This document shows, in pieces, positions 57,748 to 64,000 of a DNA stretch of 64,000 bases. Under the pieces are notes generated by a model. The model saw nothing but the letters and a program-made list of their open reading frames with translations, did no database searches and was not told the DNA's origin. The stretch is taken from contig OY969474.1 in the NCBI GenBank assembly GCA_963700145.1, forward strand, positions 3,136,001 to 3,200,000, written 5' to 3'. Made by a program: the position numbers and the translations under genes. Source of the stretch: an uncultured Acidobacteriota bacterium. GTDB lineage: Bacteria > Acidobacteriota > Thermoanaerobaculia > Multivoradales > UBA5704. The first letter of the stretch is position 1, and every line of letters begins with the position of its first letter.

Positions 57748-59577
57748 CTACGGCCGCACCGGCGGGTTCGGCCGGGCGCGCGTCGTCGCCTCGACGTAGA
57801 TCACCGCCTCGAAGCGGTCGGGGAGCACCAGCTCCGTCGCCATCTCGGGCTCGCCGCGGAAGACGGCGCCGATCTCGCGGATCGGGTGCGGGGCGCGGAA
57901 CCAGTCGGCGACCGGCCCCTCCGCCGGCAGGCGGCGCAGGTCGAGGAGGCTGAGCGGCCAGCCGGCGCGCTCGAAGGCGTCCTCGAGCGTGCCCGCGGGG
58001 GGCGGGCCGACGGTGTGCTCGATCAACCCGCGCCGTCCCCCGGTGCCGTCGAGCGCCTGGAAGCCGCCGTGGTGGAAGAGGAACCCCACCGGCAGGTAGT
58101 CCTCGCCCAGCTCCGCCTCGAGGTGGCGTCCCAGCGACGTGAAGCGGAGGCCGGCCTTGGCGATGTGCCCGTTGTGCGCCCACAAGACGATGCGCGACCC
58201 GGGCTCGGCGACGTCGGCGATCCAGTGCAGGTTGTCGGCCATGCGGCGGTCGCGCACCTCGGAGTTGCCCAGGGGGTCGCTCCCCAGCTCGACGTACTGG
58301 CGCAGCACCTCCACGTACCGCCGGTCGACGAGGGCCTGCCGGTCGGCCGCGGCCGCCGGCTGCGGCAGCCGCTCGCCGATCCGCGGCAGCAGCGCGCCGA
58401 CGGCGGCGAGGCCCTCGTCGGTGGGCCCCGTTTCGGCGCGCTCCTCCGCGACGAGCCTGGCGAGGGCCGGCCCCGCCGCCGCCGCGAGCGCCGGGTCGAT
58501 CTCCCCGAGCCGCGCCGCCAAGCGCTCGGCCGCCACCGCGCCCGCCTGCATGTCGATGCCGTAGAAGCGGACCTGCCGGCGCCCCGGCACGGCGTTCCAC
58601 TGCCGCATCCAGCGGATGAGGTCGAGCACCTCCTCGGTGTTCCAGGTCCAGAAGTACATCCCGGCGAGCGCCGCGGCGGGGTCTCCCTGCCCCGTCCGCA
58701 CGTACTCGTCCACCGCCTCGGACTCCGGCCAGTTGGCCTCGATGGCGAAGACGCTGAAGCCGAGCTCCGAGACGAGGTACTCGAGCATCCGGTGCTTCAT
58801 CTGGAAGTGCTCGCGCGTGCCGTGCGTGGACTCGCCGAGCGCCACCACCCGCGCGCCGCCGACGACCTCGCGCAGCGGCGCCATGTCGGCGAAGCCGTGC
58901 CCGGCGCGCGTCGTCAGCAGCGGCACCGCCTGGCCGCGGATCCAGTCCACCACCGCCTCCGGCGGCGGCGCCGGCCGGCGGATCACCAGGTCCTGCCGCG
59001 CCGCGCCGGCGGCGACCTCGAAGTGGGCCGAGCGCTCCTCGCCCGCCACCGCGCGGCAGACGTGCGGCGCCGCCGGCAGGCGCAGCGCGTAGCGCCCGGC
59101 GCCGTCGGCGCGGACGACAAAGAGGTCACTCCGGAGGAAGGAGCGCATGCACCGCACCTGCGCGCCGCCGAGGGCGGCCCCCGTCGAGTCGCGGACCTCG
59201 CCGGCCAAGAGGAACCCCTCGGCCGGGGCCAGGAGGCGCAGGTCGCGCACCACCTTGCCGCTCGCCTCCGCCGGCGGCGAGTAGGCGGCGGTCCACTGCG
59301 GATGGGTCGCGGTCAGGGCATAGGAGCCGGCGGGGACCGTCGCGGCGAACGCCCCGCCGGCGCCGGCGACCACGACCGCCGCCGGATCGGCGCGGTTGCG
59401 GGGGACGACGGCAACGATCGCCCCCGCGGCCGGCTCGCCGCCGGGCCCGAGGACCGTGCCGCTCACCTCGGCGCTCGCGGGCGCGGGCGGCTCCTCCGCG
59501 CCGGCGAGCGGCGCGCCCGCGGCCCCGGCGAGCCCGGCGGCGCAAGCGAGGACGAAAGCTCTGCCGCGGCGGATCAC
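57748..59577 (-). CDS. Erythromycin esterase family protein with two carboxypeptidase-regulatory-like domains
   Basis: VALGESTHGTREH, FWTWNTEEV, RDRRMADN, VLWAHNGHI; GTG start with signal peptide. Confidence 0.88.
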   Translation of the reverse strand: MIRRGRAFVLACAAGLAGAAGAPLAGAEEPPAPASAEVSGTVLGPGGEPAAGAIVAVVPRNRADPAAVVVAGAGGAFAATVPAGSYALTATHPQWTAAYSPPAEASGKVVRDLRLLAPAEGFLLAGEVRDSTGAALGGAQVRCMRSFLRSDLFVVRADGAGRYALRLPAAPHVCRAVAGEERSAHFEVAAGAARQDLVIRRPAPPPEAVVDWIRGQAVPLLTTRAGHGFADMAPLREVVGGARVVALGESTHGTREHFQMKHRMLEYLVSELGFSVFAIEANWPESEAVDEYVRTGQGDPAAALAGMYFWTWNTEEVLDLIRWMRQWNAVPGRRQVRFYGIDMQAGAVAAERLAARLGEIDPALAAAAGPALARLVAEERAETGPTDEGLAAVGALLPRIGERLPQPAAAADRQALVDRRYVEVLRQYVELGSDPLGNSEVRDRRMADNLHWIADVAEPGSRIVLWAHNGHIAKAGLRFTSLGRHLEAELGEDYLPVGFLFHHGGFQALDGTGGRRGLIEHTVGPPPAGTLEDAFERAGWPLSLLDLRRLPAEGPVADWFRAPHPIREIGAVFRGEPEMATELVLPDRFEAVIYVEATTRARPNPPVRP

Positions 59578-61229
59578 CCCGGAGCGCGGCGGACGCAACG
59601 GACCTTGAGCGTCCCTTCCTTGTCCCACTTCCAGGTGGTGTAGACGCTCCCGTTCGAGGTCTGCGCCTGCCACGCCGACTCCGGTCGGTTTTCCCCTTCC
59701 GTCGAGCTCCAATAGGTGCCGGTGGTCATTCCCAAGGTCGCTCGGTTGTCCATCAGGCAGCGGAGCTCGTTGCTGGCCGGTAGATACCAATCCTCCCGGT
59801 TGGCGGCGTTGAGGGCCGCGCAGACGGCGGCCGCCGAAGCCGGCCCGCACTCGTGTTTCCCGATCGCCGCCGTGTTCTCGTCGCCGTTCCACTCGGAGCG
59901 CGCGCCGGTGGAGACGCCGGTCTGGCCGCGTCCGGGATCCGGCCGCCAGCAACCCCAGTCTCTGTTCGTCGCCGAATCGTTGGGCATGACGACGAGCGTG
60001 CGATCCCCGCAGCGGAGGCGCGGATAGCCCTTGAACGAGACTTTGGTGTCCGAGGTCGTGGTGCCGCACTCGTTGGCCACCGTCCAGCGGAGCGTGTAGG
60101 TCTCGTTCTCCGAGCCGGTGAAGCCGCTCGCCGGATCGGTCGGCGAAGCGATCCTCCCGCGGCCGTCCGCCGCCCCGACGATCGACCACCGTCCGGCCCC
60201 CGCTTCGCGGCTCGCCGCCAGGGACGCCGACGGCGCGGCGAGGTCCCGCTGGTCGGCGCCGGCGGCCGCGGCCCGGTCCTCGACCTTGAAGGGGGCCGAG
60301 GAGACGCGGCAGCCGTTGCGGTGGGTCGTGTGCACGGTGTACGTGCCCGGCTGGGACACGGCCAGGGTTTGACCCTTGCCTCCGGTCGACCAGACATAGC
60401 CCTCGGCGCCGTCGCCGATGAGCTCCACCTGCCGCCCGGGACAGAGCAGCGGCGGTTGGTTGGTCCTGATCGTGGGCTTCGGCGCCGGGTGGATGACGAC
60501 CTCCGTCGCGCTCCGCGCGCTCGAACAGCCGCCGACGATGGCGCGGACGTTCCACGTCCCGCCGGCCGCCGCCGCGACGTCGTCGATCCGGACCGTCGGT
60601 CCGAACGGCTTCTGCCCGTTCGGGCCGGTCCAAAGGTGGAGGACGCCGGGAACCTCGCTCGCCGCGAGCTGGAGCCGGCTCCCCGCGCACTGGGGCCCGT
60701 CGTTCGCCGCCCTCGGCGCCGGGGGCGGCGTGCCCGGGCAGGCCGCGCGGACGCAACGGACCCGAGCGCGCGTGTCTTTGAAGGTGTTGCGGCTGGTACC
60801 GGTGCCGAAGAGCATGGCAAGGGCGTACGAAGGGTCGAACGCTTCGGTCGAAGACCAGTACTCCTCCCGTTGGAACCCGCCGATCCGGGCGCGGTTGTCG
60901 AAGAGACACTTGAGCTCTTGGTTCGAGGGCAGATACCAGGGGGTGTCGCCGCTCGCGAGCCCATCGCAGACGCCCGCGCCGCCCGCGTCGGCGCCGCACG
61001 TCAGGAAGATGGCCTGCCCGTTGAAGAGACCGTCGTCGTGGGAGCCGGCGTTGGTCCTTTTGCGGCAGCCCCCGGTCGCGGTCCCACTGTCCTCGGGCTG
61101 CACCTGGAGCCTCCGGCCGAAGCAATCGATCTCCGGCAGAGCGGCGCCGAGAGCGGGACCGGCCGGCAACGCGCCGAGAGCGAAGAACGCCGTGACGAGG
61201 ATCGACCGGGAAACCGGCAAGGTCCGCAC
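59574..61229 (-). CDS. Secreted protein with two DUF1566/Lcl-like domains flanking Ig-like domains
   Basis: Two copies of WYLP...EL...YWSSTE...VRCVR; GGAGG RBS before GTG 61229. Confidence 0.75.
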   Translation of the reverse strand: MRTLPVSRSILVTAFFALGALPAGPALGAALPEIDCFGRRLQVQPEDSGTATGGCRKRTNAGSHDDGLFNGQAIFLTCGADAGGAGVCDGLASGDTPWYLPSNQELKCLFDNRARIGGFQREEYWSSTEAFDPSYALAMLFGTGTSRNTFKDTRARVRCVRAACPGTPPPAPRAANDGPQCAGSRLQLAASEVPGVLHLWTGPNGQKPFGPTVRIDDVAAAAGGTWNVRAIVGGCSSARSATEVVIHPAPKPTIRTNQPPLLCPGRQVELIGDGAEGYVWSTGGKGQTLAVSQPGTYTVHTTHRNGCRVSSAPFKVEDRAAAAGADQRDLAAPSASLAASREAGAGRWSIVGAADGRGRIASPTDPASGFTGSENETYTLRWTVANECGTTTSDTKVSFKGYPRLRCGDRTLVVMPNDSATNRDWGCWRPDPGRGQTGVSTGARSEWNGDENTAAIGKHECGPASAAAVCAALNAANREDWYLPASNELRCLMDNRATLGMTTGTYWSSTEGENRPESAWQAQTSNGSVYTTWKWDKEGTLKVRCVRRAPG

Positions 61230-61274: not shown

Positions 61275-61892
61275 ATGCCAAGCACCGGGCGCTCGCGCGA
61301 CACCCTTCTCCTCCTCGCCGTTCCCGCCCTCCTCTGTGCCGTCGCGGCCGTGCAGCTCTATCTGGTGGAGCAGCGCTCGCTGTCGCGCTGGAAGGGCGGC
61401 GGGTTCGGGATGTTCTCGACGGTGGACTCGCCGAGCGCGCGCTTTCTGCGGATCTACCTGAAGTCGGACGAGGGCGAGGTGCCCGTCCTCGTCCCCGACG
61501 AGGTCCGGGAGCTGTCGCACAAGGTGCGGGTGATGCCCTCGCAGCGGCGGTTGGCGGAGCTGGCGGACACGCTGCGCAACGGCACCTGGGTGCACCTGTC
61601 GGTGGTCTCCGCCACGCAGCATTACCACGACCTGCTGCGCGCGGCCGGCGGGGAGTACCAGGACTCGGCGGACGACATCCAGGTCCAGACCCAGCCCGGT
61701 CCCGCCCGCATCGACTTCGAAGGGATGAAGCTCGTCCGCATGCTCGGCGAGGACGAAGGTCCGTCGGACGACAAGCCGCTCGTGGTGACGGGCGCCCGCG
61801 TCGAGGTCTGGCGCTACGTCTTCGACCGGGAGGGGCTGGTCCTGCGCGCCCGCAAGATCGCCGAACACGCGTCGCCGGGCGATGGCCGCTGA
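61275..61892 (+). CDS. Membrane-anchored partner of the HTTM protein (SdpA / GGCX-luminal-like)
   Basis: N-terminal TM then RWKGGGFGMFSTVD; overlaps the next gene. Confidence 0.6.
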   Translation: MPSTGRSRDTLLLLAVPALLCAVAAVQLYLVEQRSLSRWKGGGFGMFSTVDSPSARFLRIYLKSDEGEVPVLVPDEVRELSHKVRVMPSQRRLAELADTLRNGTWVHLSVVSATQHYHDLLRAAGGEYQDSADDIQVQTQPGPARIDFEGMKLVRMLGEDEGPSDDKPLVVTGARVEVWRYVFDREGLVLRARKIAEHASPGDGR

Positions 61893-62796
61893 CCTCGCGC
61901 CGGCCGAGGGCCTCCCCGCCCGGCGGCGCCGGCCGAGCGCCCTCGAGCGGGCGGCGGCCGAGATGGACCGGCTGGAGCTGAGCCTGCTCCTGACGCTGCT
62001 GCTGCTGGTCTTCCACCCGCCGCGCTACCTCTACGTCAGCCTGCCGCTCTCGGTGATCGCGCTGGTGGCGATCCTGATGCCGCCCCTGCGCCGCAGCCGG
62101 CTCCTGTGGCTCCTGGCCGCCCTCCTCGTGGGGGCGGCCGCCGTCGGCCACTGGCAGACGACCGACAACCACAAGTACCTCCTCGCCTACTGGTGCCTGG
62201 CGATCGCCTGCGCCCTCTGGACGAGCGACCCTAGCCCGTCGCTGGCGCGCATCGCGCGCTGGCTGGTCGCCGCCGTCTTTGCGTTCGCGGTGCTGCAGAA
62301 GCTCCTCTCGAGCGACTACCTGAGCTCCGACTTCTTCTACTTCGCGCTGCTCTTCGACGAGCGCTTCGCCAGCCTGGCCCGGCACCTCGGCGGCGTCTCG
62401 GAGTTCAGCGGCGAGCTCAACGAGTCGGCGCGGCGCGCCCTGGTCAACTACGACAGCGCCCTCGAGGCGGTGAAGCTCTCAAGCCAGAGCGGCACGCTGC
62501 CGGTCGTGGCGGCGTTCGTCACCTGGTGGACCGTCCTGCTGGAGGCGGCGATCGGCGCCGCCCACCTGGCGCCCCAGACGACGTGGCTCGCGCGCTGGCG
62601 CCACCCACTGCTGCTCCTCTTCGTCTTCAGCACCTACCTCTTCGCGCCGGTGATCGGCTTCGGCTGGCTGATGATCGTCCTCGGCGTCGCGCAGCTCGGC
62701 CCGGCGGCCACCCGGATGCGGCTGGCCTACCTGCTGTCGATCGTCGTCCTGCAGGCCTACCGGTACCCGTGGTCCAGCCTCTCCGACGGCGGCTGA
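61882..62796 (+). CDS. HTTM-domain / vitamin K-dependent carboxylase-like membrane protein
   Basis: Multi-TM; DNHKYL and FAFAVLQKLLSSDYL motifs. Confidence 0.6.
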   Translation: MAADLAPAEGLPARRRRPSALERAAAEMDRLELSLLLTLLLLVFHPPRYLYVSLPLSVIALVAILMPPLRRSRLLWLLAALLVGAAAVGHWQTTDNHKYLLAYWCLAIACALWTSDPSPSLARIARWLVAAVFAFAVLQKLLSSDYLSSDFFYFALLFDERFASLARHLGGVSEFSGELNESARRALVNYDSALEAVKLSSQSGTLPVVAAFVTWWTVLLEAAIGAAHLAPQTTWLARWRHPLLLLFVFSTYLFAPVIGFGWLMIVLGVAQLGPAATRMRLAYLLSIVVLQAYRYPWSSLSDGG

Positions 62797-62832
62797 CGGC
62801 GGCGCCGCGGGCGGGCGTATACTCGGGCCAAC

Positions 62833-63528
62833 TTGCGAACCAGACAGGCGCTCGCGGCGCTGTTCCTGCTGGCCGTCGGCCCGACCGGGTGCAGTCAACC
62901 GCCCGACGCCGGCGGCGAGACGACCGTCGACATCGAGCCGCGCCCCGGGCTCCCCTTCCCTGACGGCGACGCCGGTCGCGCCGTCGCGTCGCACCTCGAC
63001 GCGATGTTCGCCATCGGTCCCAATGCCGAAGCGAGCTACCAGGCGTCGCTCGCGGCCCTGCGCGCGCGGGGCGGCGAAGCGATCGCGGCCCTCGTCGCCA
63101 CCTACAACCAGGCCGACGAGACGCTGTACAACGAGCGCGCGGCCCTCGTCGAGACCCTGGCGGCGCTGTGGCTGCCCGAGGCGCGCGACGCGCTGCTCGC
63201 GATCGCCAACGAGCCCCTGCCCGAGCGCGTCCCCGCGCCCGACGACACCATGCAGCCGATCGGGCCGGAAATCGTCATCCGGACGACCGCGATCCGCGGC
63301 CTGGGGAACCTCGCCGAGCGCGACGACGCCGCGGCCCGGGCCCTCGCTGCGCTGGCGAAGCATCGCGAGCTGGCGCTGCAGGAGCAGGCCAAGCAGTCCC
63401 TGGCCATCGTCATCGCGCAGGAGAAGAACCGGATCCGGCGCCAGCTGCTGATCCAGCTCTTCCCGGGCGAGCACCAGGACTGGGTGCCGCTCCAGGACCT
63501 CGCGCCCCCGGCGCCGAGCCGCAACTAG
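62833..63528 (+). CDS. Lipoprotein with HEAT-like helical repeats
   Basis: PTGC lipobox-like motif; IRTTAIRGLGNLA. Confidence 0.65.
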   Translation: MRTRQALAALFLLAVGPTGCSQPPDAGGETTVDIEPRPGLPFPDGDAGRAVASHLDAMFAIGPNAEASYQASLAALRARGGEAIAALVATYNQADETLYNERAALVETLAALWLPEARDALLAIANEPLPERVPAPDDTMQPIGPEIVIRTTAIRGLGNLAERDDAAARALAALAKHRELALQEQAKQSLAIVIAQEKNRIRRQLLIQLFPGEHQDWVPLQDLAPPAPSRN

Positions 63529-63544
63529 CAGGGAGGCCGATCCC

Positions 63545-64000
63545 ATGCGAACGAAGGTGTCGCGGACGCTGTCGCTGATCGCGCTCCTGACCCTGGCGCT
63601 GCCGACCCGCATGGCCAACGCCGACTTCGAGGAGGAGTGCGTCGAGGAGGAGTGCGACGGCGAAGAGCTCGAAGAGATGCACGAGGACTACGCGGACGAG
63701 TGCCTCGAAGAGGAGTGCGACGTCGAGGAAGTGCGCGAGCTCGCCGGGACCCGCGGCAACATCAACGCCCTGCTCGACGCGTTCCAGAGCCGGGGCTTCC
63801 AGATCGACGCCTGCAGTCGCGTCGGCGCCTGCTCCCCCTCCCCGGGAGACAACAACGCCAGCCTCGACAACTTCTTCGACGGGTTCTGCAACCAGTCCTC
63901 GATCGACCAGCACTGGGACGACTTCGAGATGTCGAAGGACGACTGGGACGGCACCTTCGGGTGGGACGCCCCCTGCGACCAGAACCTGCCGCTGGGCCGC
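63545..64000 (+). CDS. Secreted protein with tandem Glu/Cys (Gla-like) motifs (3' partial)
   Basis: GGGAGG RBS; MRTKVSRTLSLIALLTLALPTRMANA-DFEEECVEEECDGEELEEMHEDYADECLEEECDVEEVRE...; open to the window end and absent from the ORF track. Confidence 0.85.
   Translation, partial: MRTKVSRTLSLIALLTLALPTRMANADFEEECVEEECDGEELEEMHEDYADECLEEECDVEEVRELAGTRGNINALLDAFQSRGFQIDACSRVGACSPSPGDNNASLDNFFDGFCNQSSIDQHWDDFEMSKDDWDGTFGWDAPCDQNLPLGR

Follow-up and report, generated by a model that had tools for sequence, protein, structure and literature searches.

Analysis of a 64,000-nucleotide stretch of DNA from an uncultured Acidobacteriota bacterium (GenBank assembly GCA_963700145.1, contig OY969474.1, positions 3,136,001 to 3,200,000 of the forward strand; hereafter the window) revealed a cassette of four co-oriented open reading frames (ORFs) at 61275-64000 (+ strand) that is likely to encode both a membrane enzyme and the exported protein on which it acts. 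ORF1 and ORF2 are the candidate enzyme, ORF2 resembling in fold and motifs the gamma-glutamyl carboxylase of animals (GGCX), and ORF4 carries behind its signal peptide a module rich in Glu and Cys that resembles the core of the Gla domains of vitamin K-dependent proteins. The probable enzyme-substrate relation between ORF1/ORF2 and this module rests on gene linkage, on the mobility of the module among proteins and on the ORF2 phylogeny. By analogy with GGCX we propose, more tentatively, that a two-subunit, menaquinol-dependent enzyme gamma-carboxylates Glu residues of exported modules. The four genes, with lengths in amino acids (aa) and spacings in nucleotides (nt), are as follows.

61275..61892, + strand: ORF1, 205 aa, an N-terminal membrane helix followed by a predicted periplasmic alpha/beta domain.
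61882..62796, + strand: ORF2, 304 aa, a polytopic membrane protein with a probable divergent HTTM-type fold, overlapping ORF1 by 11 nt.
62833..63528, + strand: ORF3, 231 aa, TTG start, a probable lipoprotein, 36 nt after ORF2.
63545..64000 in the window, + strand: ORF4, 16 nt after ORF3, with 152 of its 342 aa in the window.

The initial annotation had described four tightly spaced genes in one orientation, which the ORF listing bears out, and a membrane anchor on the 205-aa protein, whose N-terminal hydrophobic helix is present. ORF4 runs past the window end to window-equivalent position 64573, and a reading of the genome gives its layout as a signal peptide, the Gla-like module and a domain with an HExxH motif. 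The parts of ORF4 that lie at its N-terminus are the following.

63545..63622, + strand: signal peptide, residues 1-26, ending A-N-A, as read from the sequence.
63623..63811, + strand: Gla-like module, residues 27-89, two tandem E-C-x2-E-x-C-x2-E-E-x2-E units followed by a conserved A-G...I-N-A-M-L...F...R-G tail.
63635..63676, + strand: repeat unit 1, residues 31-44, ECVEEECDGEELEE.
63698..63739, + strand: repeat unit 2, residues 52-65, ECLEEECDVEEVRE, the closer of the two to the disulfide loop and helix of Gla domains.

The motif E-C-x-E-E-E-C-D-x-E-E, which had been reported twice in ORF4, proved exact in both copies (ECVEEECDGEE at 63635 and ECLEEECDVEE at 63698). Both EC.EE.C..EE and the looser C..E.C..EE matched only at these two sites in a six-frame translation of the whole genome, and since these are the sole two matches in 10.9 million translated residues the motif lies far beyond chance; it is kept in ORF4 homologues down to ~45% identity. 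After A-N-A the mature protein starts with D-F-E-E-E-C-V-E-E-E-C-D-G-E-E-L-E-E, and 21 residues on comes E-C-L-E-E-E-C-D-V-E-E-V-R-E, giving 18 Glu within the initial 40 residues of the module (27-66) and two C-x4-C pairs, with 16 Cys in mature ORF4 as a whole. The long relatives of ORF4 share the module consensus Y-x-E-E-C-Q-x-E-G-C-D-x-E-E-x-E-E-L-H-E-S-Y-E-S-E-C-F-E-E-x-C-x-x-E-E-V-R-E-I-A-G, and an alignment of the module only (A3, ten sequences from the window and the loci retrieved) has E5, C6, C11, E14, E15, E18, Y23, E26, E35, E36 and E39 as its invariant residues.

Profile searches with these sequences led to Gla proteins with E-values that are marginal and a specificity that is striking. 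With a profile of the ORF4 family (A1), 21 of the 22 matches among all PDB sequences (E<=10) were chains of factor X, factor IX, factor VII or protein C (best E=0.0014), the alignment spanning e-e-l-h-e-s-y-e-s-e-c-f-e-e-s-c-d-v-e-e-v-r-e; with the A3 profile, 21 of 23 matches were vitamin K-dependent proteins (best 0.0022), and both repeat units fell on the Gla core. The hidden Markov model (HMM) alignment sets E-C-x-E-E-x-C-x2-E-E-x-R-E of the module against E-C-[MI]-E-E-x-C-x-[FY]-E-E-A-[RK]-E of factor IX, factor X and protein C, and the ORF4 module has both the C-x4-C loop and Glu at the positions that we take to be the carboxylated ones in these clotting factors. The resemblance was also considered as an artefact of acidic composition, and this was rejected, as the PDB matches were almost only Gla proteins and a single Pfam family takes 24 of the 93 proteins described next.

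Among 1.84 billion representative proteins, the module profile found 93 at E<=0.001 (62 of these at E<=1e-10), all of them cluster representatives, of 106-699 aa. In 92 of them the module starts between residues 21 and 75, and in the remaining one at residue 113. Pfam Gla matched 24 of the 93 (E<=0.01, best 4.5e-05) and was the only recurrent family; the others were scattered (NAGPA on two, beta/gamma-crystallin on two, DUF346 on one, and others). The first part, up to [EDR], of what we take to be the PROSITE Gla pattern, E-x2-[ERK]-E-x-C-x6-[EDR]-x(10,11)-[FYA]-[YW], matched twice in ORF4 and in 14 of the 93 proteins. The module proteins inspected had the look of exported microbial proteins with diverse C-terminal parts, none like an animal clotting factor. 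The protein with the late module start, P0269 (261 aa), runs from the module into membrane-protein sequence, which is probably the source of the single RhaT match, and is probably a mis-called or fused gene. The acidic module as a protease prodomain with a Cys switch was likewise rejected, the module occurring also alone and on unrelated C-terminal domains.

Linkage of the module to ORF1 and ORF2 was assessed from the substrate side and from the enzyme side. For the former, HMMs of ORF1, ORF2 and the module were applied to 80 loci of species-representative genomes encoding an ORF4-type C-terminal domain, with flanks of up to 7 kb each side. Module, ORF1 and ORF2 occurred together at three of these loci, one in a Saprospiraceae metagenome-assembled genome (MAG; L002) and two in Acidobacteriota MAGs (L003 and L007, the latter frameshifted), and at the other 77 all three were missing from the flanks searched. 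For the latter, 80 metagenome loci with ORF2 relatives were taken from the 416 found, and nine encoded the module: four in full ORF4-like genes, three in Cys-rich proteins of ~140 aa directly upstream of ORF1, one with a different C-terminal part and one running off the contig end, placing the metagenome modules in at least three C-terminal contexts. Where at least 2.5 kb was available on both sides, the module was present at one of six loci and absent at five. Co-occurrence, which the initial annotation had proposed as a check, therefore holds in one direction: every module gene whose context could be read adjoins ORF1/ORF2, but most ORF1/ORF2 pairs lack the module and have other neighbours. 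A gene for a peptidase S41 (Pfam E ~1e-15) lies in or beside the cassette in L002 (2727-4280, - strand), L003 (4050-5951, - strand) and L007 (7718-9661, + strand), and none is adjacent to the window's own cassette.

The other neighbours include genes with Glu-containing motifs of their own. Two conserved genes precede ORF1-ORF2 in six of eight further genomes and were DUF2092 and DUF6515 in the three genomes tested; this second operon order reads DUF2092 (periplasmic), DUF6515, ORF1-like, ORF2-like (L188-L195, e.g. L192:5204-8065). DUF2092 and DUF6515 were found at 20 of the 80 metagenome ORF2 loci (L082-L161) and at none of the nine with the module. The DUF6515 proteins have repeated G-E-E-G or G-E-D-G units without Cys and could be the substrates of that enzyme branch. 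A FastTree phylogeny was built from 91 ORF2 rows, after removal of the rows with P identifiers, for which there is no context, of rows filled in fewer than 200 columns (L007 among them) and of two window duplicates. A branch of 99% support in this tree separates all 26 DUF6515-linked rows from all 12 module-linked ones. A clade of four loci on the module side encodes pilin-like (Flp-type) peptides downstream of ORF2 (L107:9409-9666, L108:5221-5685, L109:1560-1850 and L117:1547-1837); these peptides, of the form R-R-G-x-L-T-L-E-W-I-L-L..., end in E-x-E-C-x-x-E-G-x(2-6)-C, are followed by a cysteine desulfurase gene and are a possible third substrate class. The split of the tree together with the neighbours' motifs indicates that the enzyme lineage tracks the motif of its neighbour, the neighbours sharing Glu pairs or E-C-x2-E-G.

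Structural comparison of ORF2 pointed to GGCX. Its AlphaFold2 (AF2) model (pLDDT 90.9, pTM 0.86), compared by Foldseek with 350,542 PDB chains, ranked human GGCX first (9bvo_A, prob 0.98, TMq 0.47, E 0.17), followed by ABC transporters (TMq ~0.2, prob<=0.25); in BFVD an HTTM protein of Harvfovirus was first (prob 1.00, TMq 0.47, E 0.045) and the second rank had TMq 0.23. A search of the ESM Atlas gave an HTTM cluster at rank 19 (score 0.84), which is a lead only. The two conserved motifs of ORF2 lie at these positions.

62167..62172, + strand: Asn96-His97 of ORF2, in D-N-H-K-Y-L-L-x-Y-W-C-L; H97 is invariant (39 of 39 sequences), and N96 is conserved in at least 90%.
62299..62301, + strand: Lys140 of ORF2, in A-V-L-Q-K-x4-D-Y-L-x-G; invariant, with D145-Y146 after it.

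According to the available part of a study of GGCX, the quinol is deprotonated by Lys218, on which Trp223 stacks, and Asn159 and His160 hold the carboxylate of the substrate Glu (PMC12647623). Ten canonical Pfam-HTTM proteins from genomes of the same phylum, which served as the comparison set for motifs and hhalign alignments, have Q-N-H-L-Y-L or Q-H-H-Y-L at the place matching N96-H97 of ORF2, and their order, N-H...K-L-x2-D-W, is that of the ORF2 motifs. The best of them has Q-N-H-L-Y-L and then G-G-V-A-K-L-N-P-D-W-L-R-G, with 58 residues from His to Lys as in GGCX (160 to 218), compared to 43 in ORF2; a greedy hhalign alignment (Prob 6-8%) placed the Asn-His motifs of ORF2 and the canonical proteins within a few residues of each other. 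From the helices of the model and the positive-inside rule, N96, H97 and K140 would lie at the periplasmic face. ORF2, which ends after the membrane core, is probably a divergent HTTM-fold protein that keeps the catalytic core and falls outside the Pfam family; none of its 52 relatives has a precomputed annotation of PF05090 or any other Pfam family.

ORF1 is tied to ORF2 by position. It lies directly upstream at 64 of the 80 metagenome loci (the upstream sequence of the remaining 16 is shorter than 650 nt) and in all eight genomes examined, and in one natural fusion (P0050, 454 aa) an ORF1-like part is N-terminal to an ORF2-like part. The C-terminus of P0050 looks disturbed, possibly by a frameshift or a gene-calling artefact. 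ORF1 has 298 relatives, which include Myxococcus and Moorena (Moorea) proteins; the family alignment has L36, W39, G41, G43, F44, G45, M46, F47, R56, R59 and W105 as invariant residues, and the AF2 model (pLDDT 82.2) has a helix at residues 5-34 and then an alpha/beta domain. The invariant loop lies at this position.

61389..61415, + strand: W-K-G-G-G-F-G-M-F loop of ORF1, residues 39-47, invariant or nearly so.

Residues 40-49 are the sole segment of the model with pLDDT <50, and the loop may become ordered only in a complex, against ORF2. ORF1 itself had no Pfam match at E<=1, and an ESM Atlas search returned unnamed clusters only. Neither family alignment, of ORF1 or of ORF2, contains an invariant Cys, which argues against thiol chemistry.

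These features can be combined in the following scheme. ORF1 and ORF2 would be the two subunits of an inner-membrane enzyme of HTTM/GGCX type whose active site faces the periplasm, and ORF4 would be exported by Sec and present its N-terminal Glu-rich C-x4-C module as substrate. As in GGCX, menaquinol would be deprotonated by Lys140 of ORF2 and then oxygenated to yield a strong base, this base would take the gamma-proton of a Glu held by Asn96-His97, and addition of CO2 would give gamma-carboxyglutamate. The modified module might then act as a Ca2+- or surface-binding handle for the HExxH domain, a putative metallopeptidase that may work with the ORF3 lipoprotein. We propose gamma-carboxylation because ORF2 has a GGCX-like core, because the conserved Glu of the module match those of the Gla core one to one, and because cofactors are available, the genome having two genes of the MqnA/MqnD family (futalosine route to menaquinone) and two haem-copper oxidase genes. 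A wider extension, which is conceivable and on balance doubtful, is that Glu gamma-carboxylation is a bacterial invention in which an HTTM enzyme of two subunits, paired with a portable E-C-x2-E-x-C-x2-E-E substrate module, decorates many periplasmic or secreted proteins (the 93 clusters, the pilin-like peptides and possibly DUF6515), and that the animal GGCX/Gla pair descends from it or shares its origin.

A number of results weigh against carboxylation by a GGCX-like enzyme. Pfam HTTM (PF05090, cut-off 27.7 bits) did not match ORF2 at E<=1 or anything in the genome at E<=0.01; the ORF2-family profile retrieved no GGCX from the PDB sequences, only two chance matches to PsaJ; both Foldseek E-values (0.17 and 0.045) exceed 0.01; and the hhalign placement of K140 on the Lys of the canonical G-G-V-A-K-L-N-P-D-W-L-R-G (P ~0.005, Prob 6-8%) is not significant by the standards of HH-suite. 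The description of ORF2 as HTTM-like in the initial annotation is favoured by the fold comparison, in which GGCX and a viral HTTM protein took the top Foldseek ranks at weak E-values, but not by Pfam membership. For ORF1, no GGCX was among the top 50 Foldseek matches in the PDB (all E>0.4), DUF5819 (PF19136) matched neither ORF1 nor anything in the genome at E<=1, and neither hmmsearch nor hhalign linked ORF1 to fused HTTM proteins (hhalign P>=0.04). The comparison of ORF1 with GGCX thus gave no structural or profile likeness, and of the proposed split GGCX-like pair what stands is the pairing, with its very strong linkage, but not a likeness of ORF1 to GGCX. Residues 374-418 of GGCX (Tyr395, Met401) have no detected counterpart in ORF1 or ORF2, although one may exist; in the accessible part of one paper they are called essential for carboxylation, and viral HTTM homologues without them are called carboxylase-like epoxidases (PMC13486548). 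In the available part of a preprint, substrate activation is stated not to occur in Leptospira homologues.

Further points of this kind come from the substrate, the cofactors and the distribution. Pfam Gla (PF00594) matched ORF4 itself at E=0.013-0.015 and 16 bits, below its cut-off of 27 bits; the full pattern that we take to be the PROSITE one matched neither ORF4 nor any of the 93 module proteins, its second half being missing; and ORF4 has no propeptide between signal peptide and first Glu (A-N-A, then D-F-E-E-E-C), some homologues having ~10-15 additional residues there. The genome contains no VKOR homologue, leaving recycling of the quinone epoxide unexplained. Finally, the module was found at nine of the 80 metagenome ORF2 loci, and among 401 genomes of the window's phylum the ORF2 family was present in 12 and the module in the window's own genome only.

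ORF1 and ORF2 might also, although we consider this somewhat unlikely, act on the module by other chemistry, either a hydroxylation or oxidation driven by quinol and O2 (the epoxidase half-reaction) or a maturation or processing of the precursor like that of SdpC by SdpA/SdpB. Linkage and tree serve this explanation as well as they serve carboxylation, and it would accommodate both the missing counterpart of GGCX residues 374-418 and the viral HTTM homologues, which the available text of one paper reads as epoxidases without carboxylation (PMC13486548). Against it, the conserved residues of the substrate are Glu that align with the Glu positions of the Gla core, and ORF2 keeps the Asn-His dyad that in GGCX holds the substrate carboxylate. 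The S41 peptidase genes beside the cassette in L002, L003 and L007 would suit a processing role, whereas a scan of the NCBIfam library, which presumably includes models of SdpA and SdpB, gave no match for ORF1 or ORF2. SdpB itself we take to be an HTTM protein, which fits the match obtained with the Bacillus subtilis control.

It is unlikely that ORF1/ORF2 and the module have no enzyme-substrate relation, with the module an unmodified, acidic, disulfide-stapled segment binding Ca2+ or another metal and Gla-like by convergence, and ORF1/ORF2 an anchor, an aid to export or sorting, or an immunity factor. In its favour, all similarity scores to Gla and HTTM lie under curated thresholds, 18 Glu in 40 residues could bind Ca2+ unmodified, and the majority of ORF1/ORF2 pairs lack the module. 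Against it, the invariant residues of ORF2 are those of a catalytic site, two other operon types also have Glu-pair or E-C-x2-E-G motifs, the module shifts among unrelated C-terminal domains and yet stays by ORF1/ORF2, and the enzyme phylogeny tracks the type of neighbour. Very improbable is a quinone-linked system of the DsbB or VKOR type that would form the disulfides of the C-x4-C pairs in the module: the two C-x4-C pairs, the 16 Cys of mature ORF4, the lack of VKOR in the genome and the fusion of some HTTM proteins to DCC-type thiol-disulfide oxidoreductase domains, mentioned in the accessible part of a preprint (bioRxiv 10.64898/2026.08.19.745780), would suit it, but ORF1 and ORF2 have no invariant Cys, the module of L098 lacks both Cys of unit 2 and keeps the Glu residues, and the G-E-E-G repeats of the DUF6515 partners are without Cys.

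The rest of ORF4 and the ORF3 gene appear to have a history of their own. Of the 41 ORF4 relatives in a large protein collection, a 34-sequence alignment had the module in all 27 long members (ORF4 included), and seven short ones (~210-270 aa) consisted of signal peptide and C-terminal domain only, without the module. The C-terminal domain of ~250 aa, which extended beyond the view of the initial annotation, has an invariant HExxH (H240, E241, H244), with H249 in at least 90%, and is by this motif a putative zinc metallopeptidase; it had no match in Pfam, NCBIfam or the PDB sequences. Most homologues have H-E-A-R-H-A-D-G-K-G-H, that is, the extended H-E-x-x-H-x-x-G-x-x-H, and the subclade of the window has H-E-S-R-H-D-D-V-G-H, one residue shorter than the motif of most relatives (ORF4 residues 240-249, L001:4262-4291, outside the window). 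ORF3 had been called a HEAT-like lipoprotein; it is a probable lipoprotein, with an atypical lipobox of its own (PTGC) and ordinary ones in its homologues, and its HEAT_2 match (E=0.0022, 18.7 bits) is below the cut-off of 27.7 bits. An ORF3 homologue was present at 45 of the 80 loci with an ORF4-type C-terminal domain, directly upstream and on the same strand at 41. Since an ORF3-like gene partners the ORF4 domain widely and the module with ORF1/ORF2 does so rarely, ORF3 and ORF4 appear to be an old pair to which module and ORF1/ORF2 were added. Pairs of an ORF3-like lipoprotein and an HExxH protein without the module are widespread in bacteria (e.g. L044, L045, L054 and L057 among L002-L081), occur also in archaeal MAGs (Promethearchaeota, Thermoplasmatales, Natrialbaceae and Methanoperedens) and are an uncharacterised two-gene unit in their own right.

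Beyond ORF4 lie a convergent TPR gene and, farther on, ~6 kb past the window end, a fused restriction-modification gene of the MmeI/Eco57I kind (1064 aa, L001:10185-13379, + strand; Pfam Eco57I 7e-19, plus N6_Mtase, TaqI_C, MmeI_Mtase and MmeI_hel). Lateral acquisition of this region would fit the patchiness of the cassette's family (12 of 401 genomes of the phylum). Upstream, the two divergent genes at 57748-59640 (- strand) and 59574-61160 (- strand) encode an erythromycin-esterase-family protein with CarboxypepD_reg domains and a protein with Ig-like and Lcl_C domains, and neither recurs beside the cassette at other loci. No promoter-like site or + strand terminator was found in 60900-65200 (window-equivalent), in a scan that is uninformative in DNA of 70% G+C.

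To our knowledge, protein gamma-carboxylation is known only from animals. Bacterial relatives of GGCX have so far been linked to a small-molecule pathway (MloH) or have no substrate, and the window's cassette is a compact bacterial pair in which candidates for an enzyme and for its protein substrate stand side by side, with dozens of natural variants of the substrate. If the enzyme-substrate reading is correct, bacteria may carboxylate their own proteins; carboxylation would offer a genetically tractable route to Gla-containing proteins and suggest concretely how the Gla domain may have originated, and if the chemistry differs the cassette still defines a new system for the modification or maturation of exported proteins. 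Searches of open-access papers and bioRxiv preprints turned up neither a bacterial Gla-like module protein encoded beside an HTTM-type enzyme nor any bacterial Gla-type substrate, consistent with the statement of the initial annotation that no bacterial Gla-domain substrate had been described.

Among the known systems close to the cassette are GGCX and the Gla proteins, with which it would share the probable polytopic HTTM-type fold of ORF2, a putative catalytic Asn-His dyad followed in the same order by Lys and D-[WY], an active face of ORF2 that would be extracytoplasmic, and secreted candidate substrates in which E-C-x2-E-x-C-x2-E-E-x2-E adjoins a protease-type domain. In contrast to GGCX, the enzyme here is in two genes with the non-HTTM part first and no detectable likeness to the lumenal domain, and ORF2 has 304 aa compared to 642 residues in the solved GGCX chain. 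In addition, ORF4 is without a propeptide, its Gla-like unit occurs as a tandem duplicate without the aromatic residues that close the Gla pattern, VKOR is absent and the activity is a predicted one. Giant viruses encode an HTTM/GGCX-like 'epoxidase' beside VKOR, a short HTTM protein without the lumenal part of GGCX, as ORF2 probably is, the Harvfovirus member being the best BFVD match of ORF2 (PMC13486548). According to the available part of that 2026 paper, a search of giant-virus proteomes for Gla domains gave none and a lipid modification was proposed, whereas here a Gla-like candidate substrate is adjacent and VKOR is absent (PMC13486548).

Three bacterial systems offer further comparisons. 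SdpA/SdpB/SdpC of Bacillus subtilis (and YitP/O/M) likewise combine a small accessory protein with a polytopic one, both needed to mature a Sec-exported precursor, but they have no sequence match to ORF1 or ORF2, and SdpC, which is not Glu-rich, is processed to a hydrophobic toxin of 42 aa (PMC6818787). MloH of malonomycin biosynthesis, a bacterial GGCX orthologue cited as a vitamin K-dependent carboxylase, is also a bacterial HTTM-type enzyme, but it is fused, and its target is an aspartyl residue in a polyketide-peptide intermediate rather than Glu of a ribosomal exported protein; a 2025 paper gives GGCX relatives and their catalytic residues as conserved in bacteria. Finally, DUF5819 with HTTM was proposed in 2026 as a split GGCX forming a bacterial vitamin K-dependent carboxylase complex, with no substrate named in the part available (bioRxiv 10.64898/2026.08.19.745780). 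That system resembles the window's cassette in setting a small protein, made up of a single N-terminal membrane helix and a soluble domain, beside an HTTM membrane protein, and differs from it in that ORF1 is not DUF5819, that ORF2 is not Pfam HTTM and has no DCC-like domain, and that in the cassette the candidate substrates are encoded alongside.

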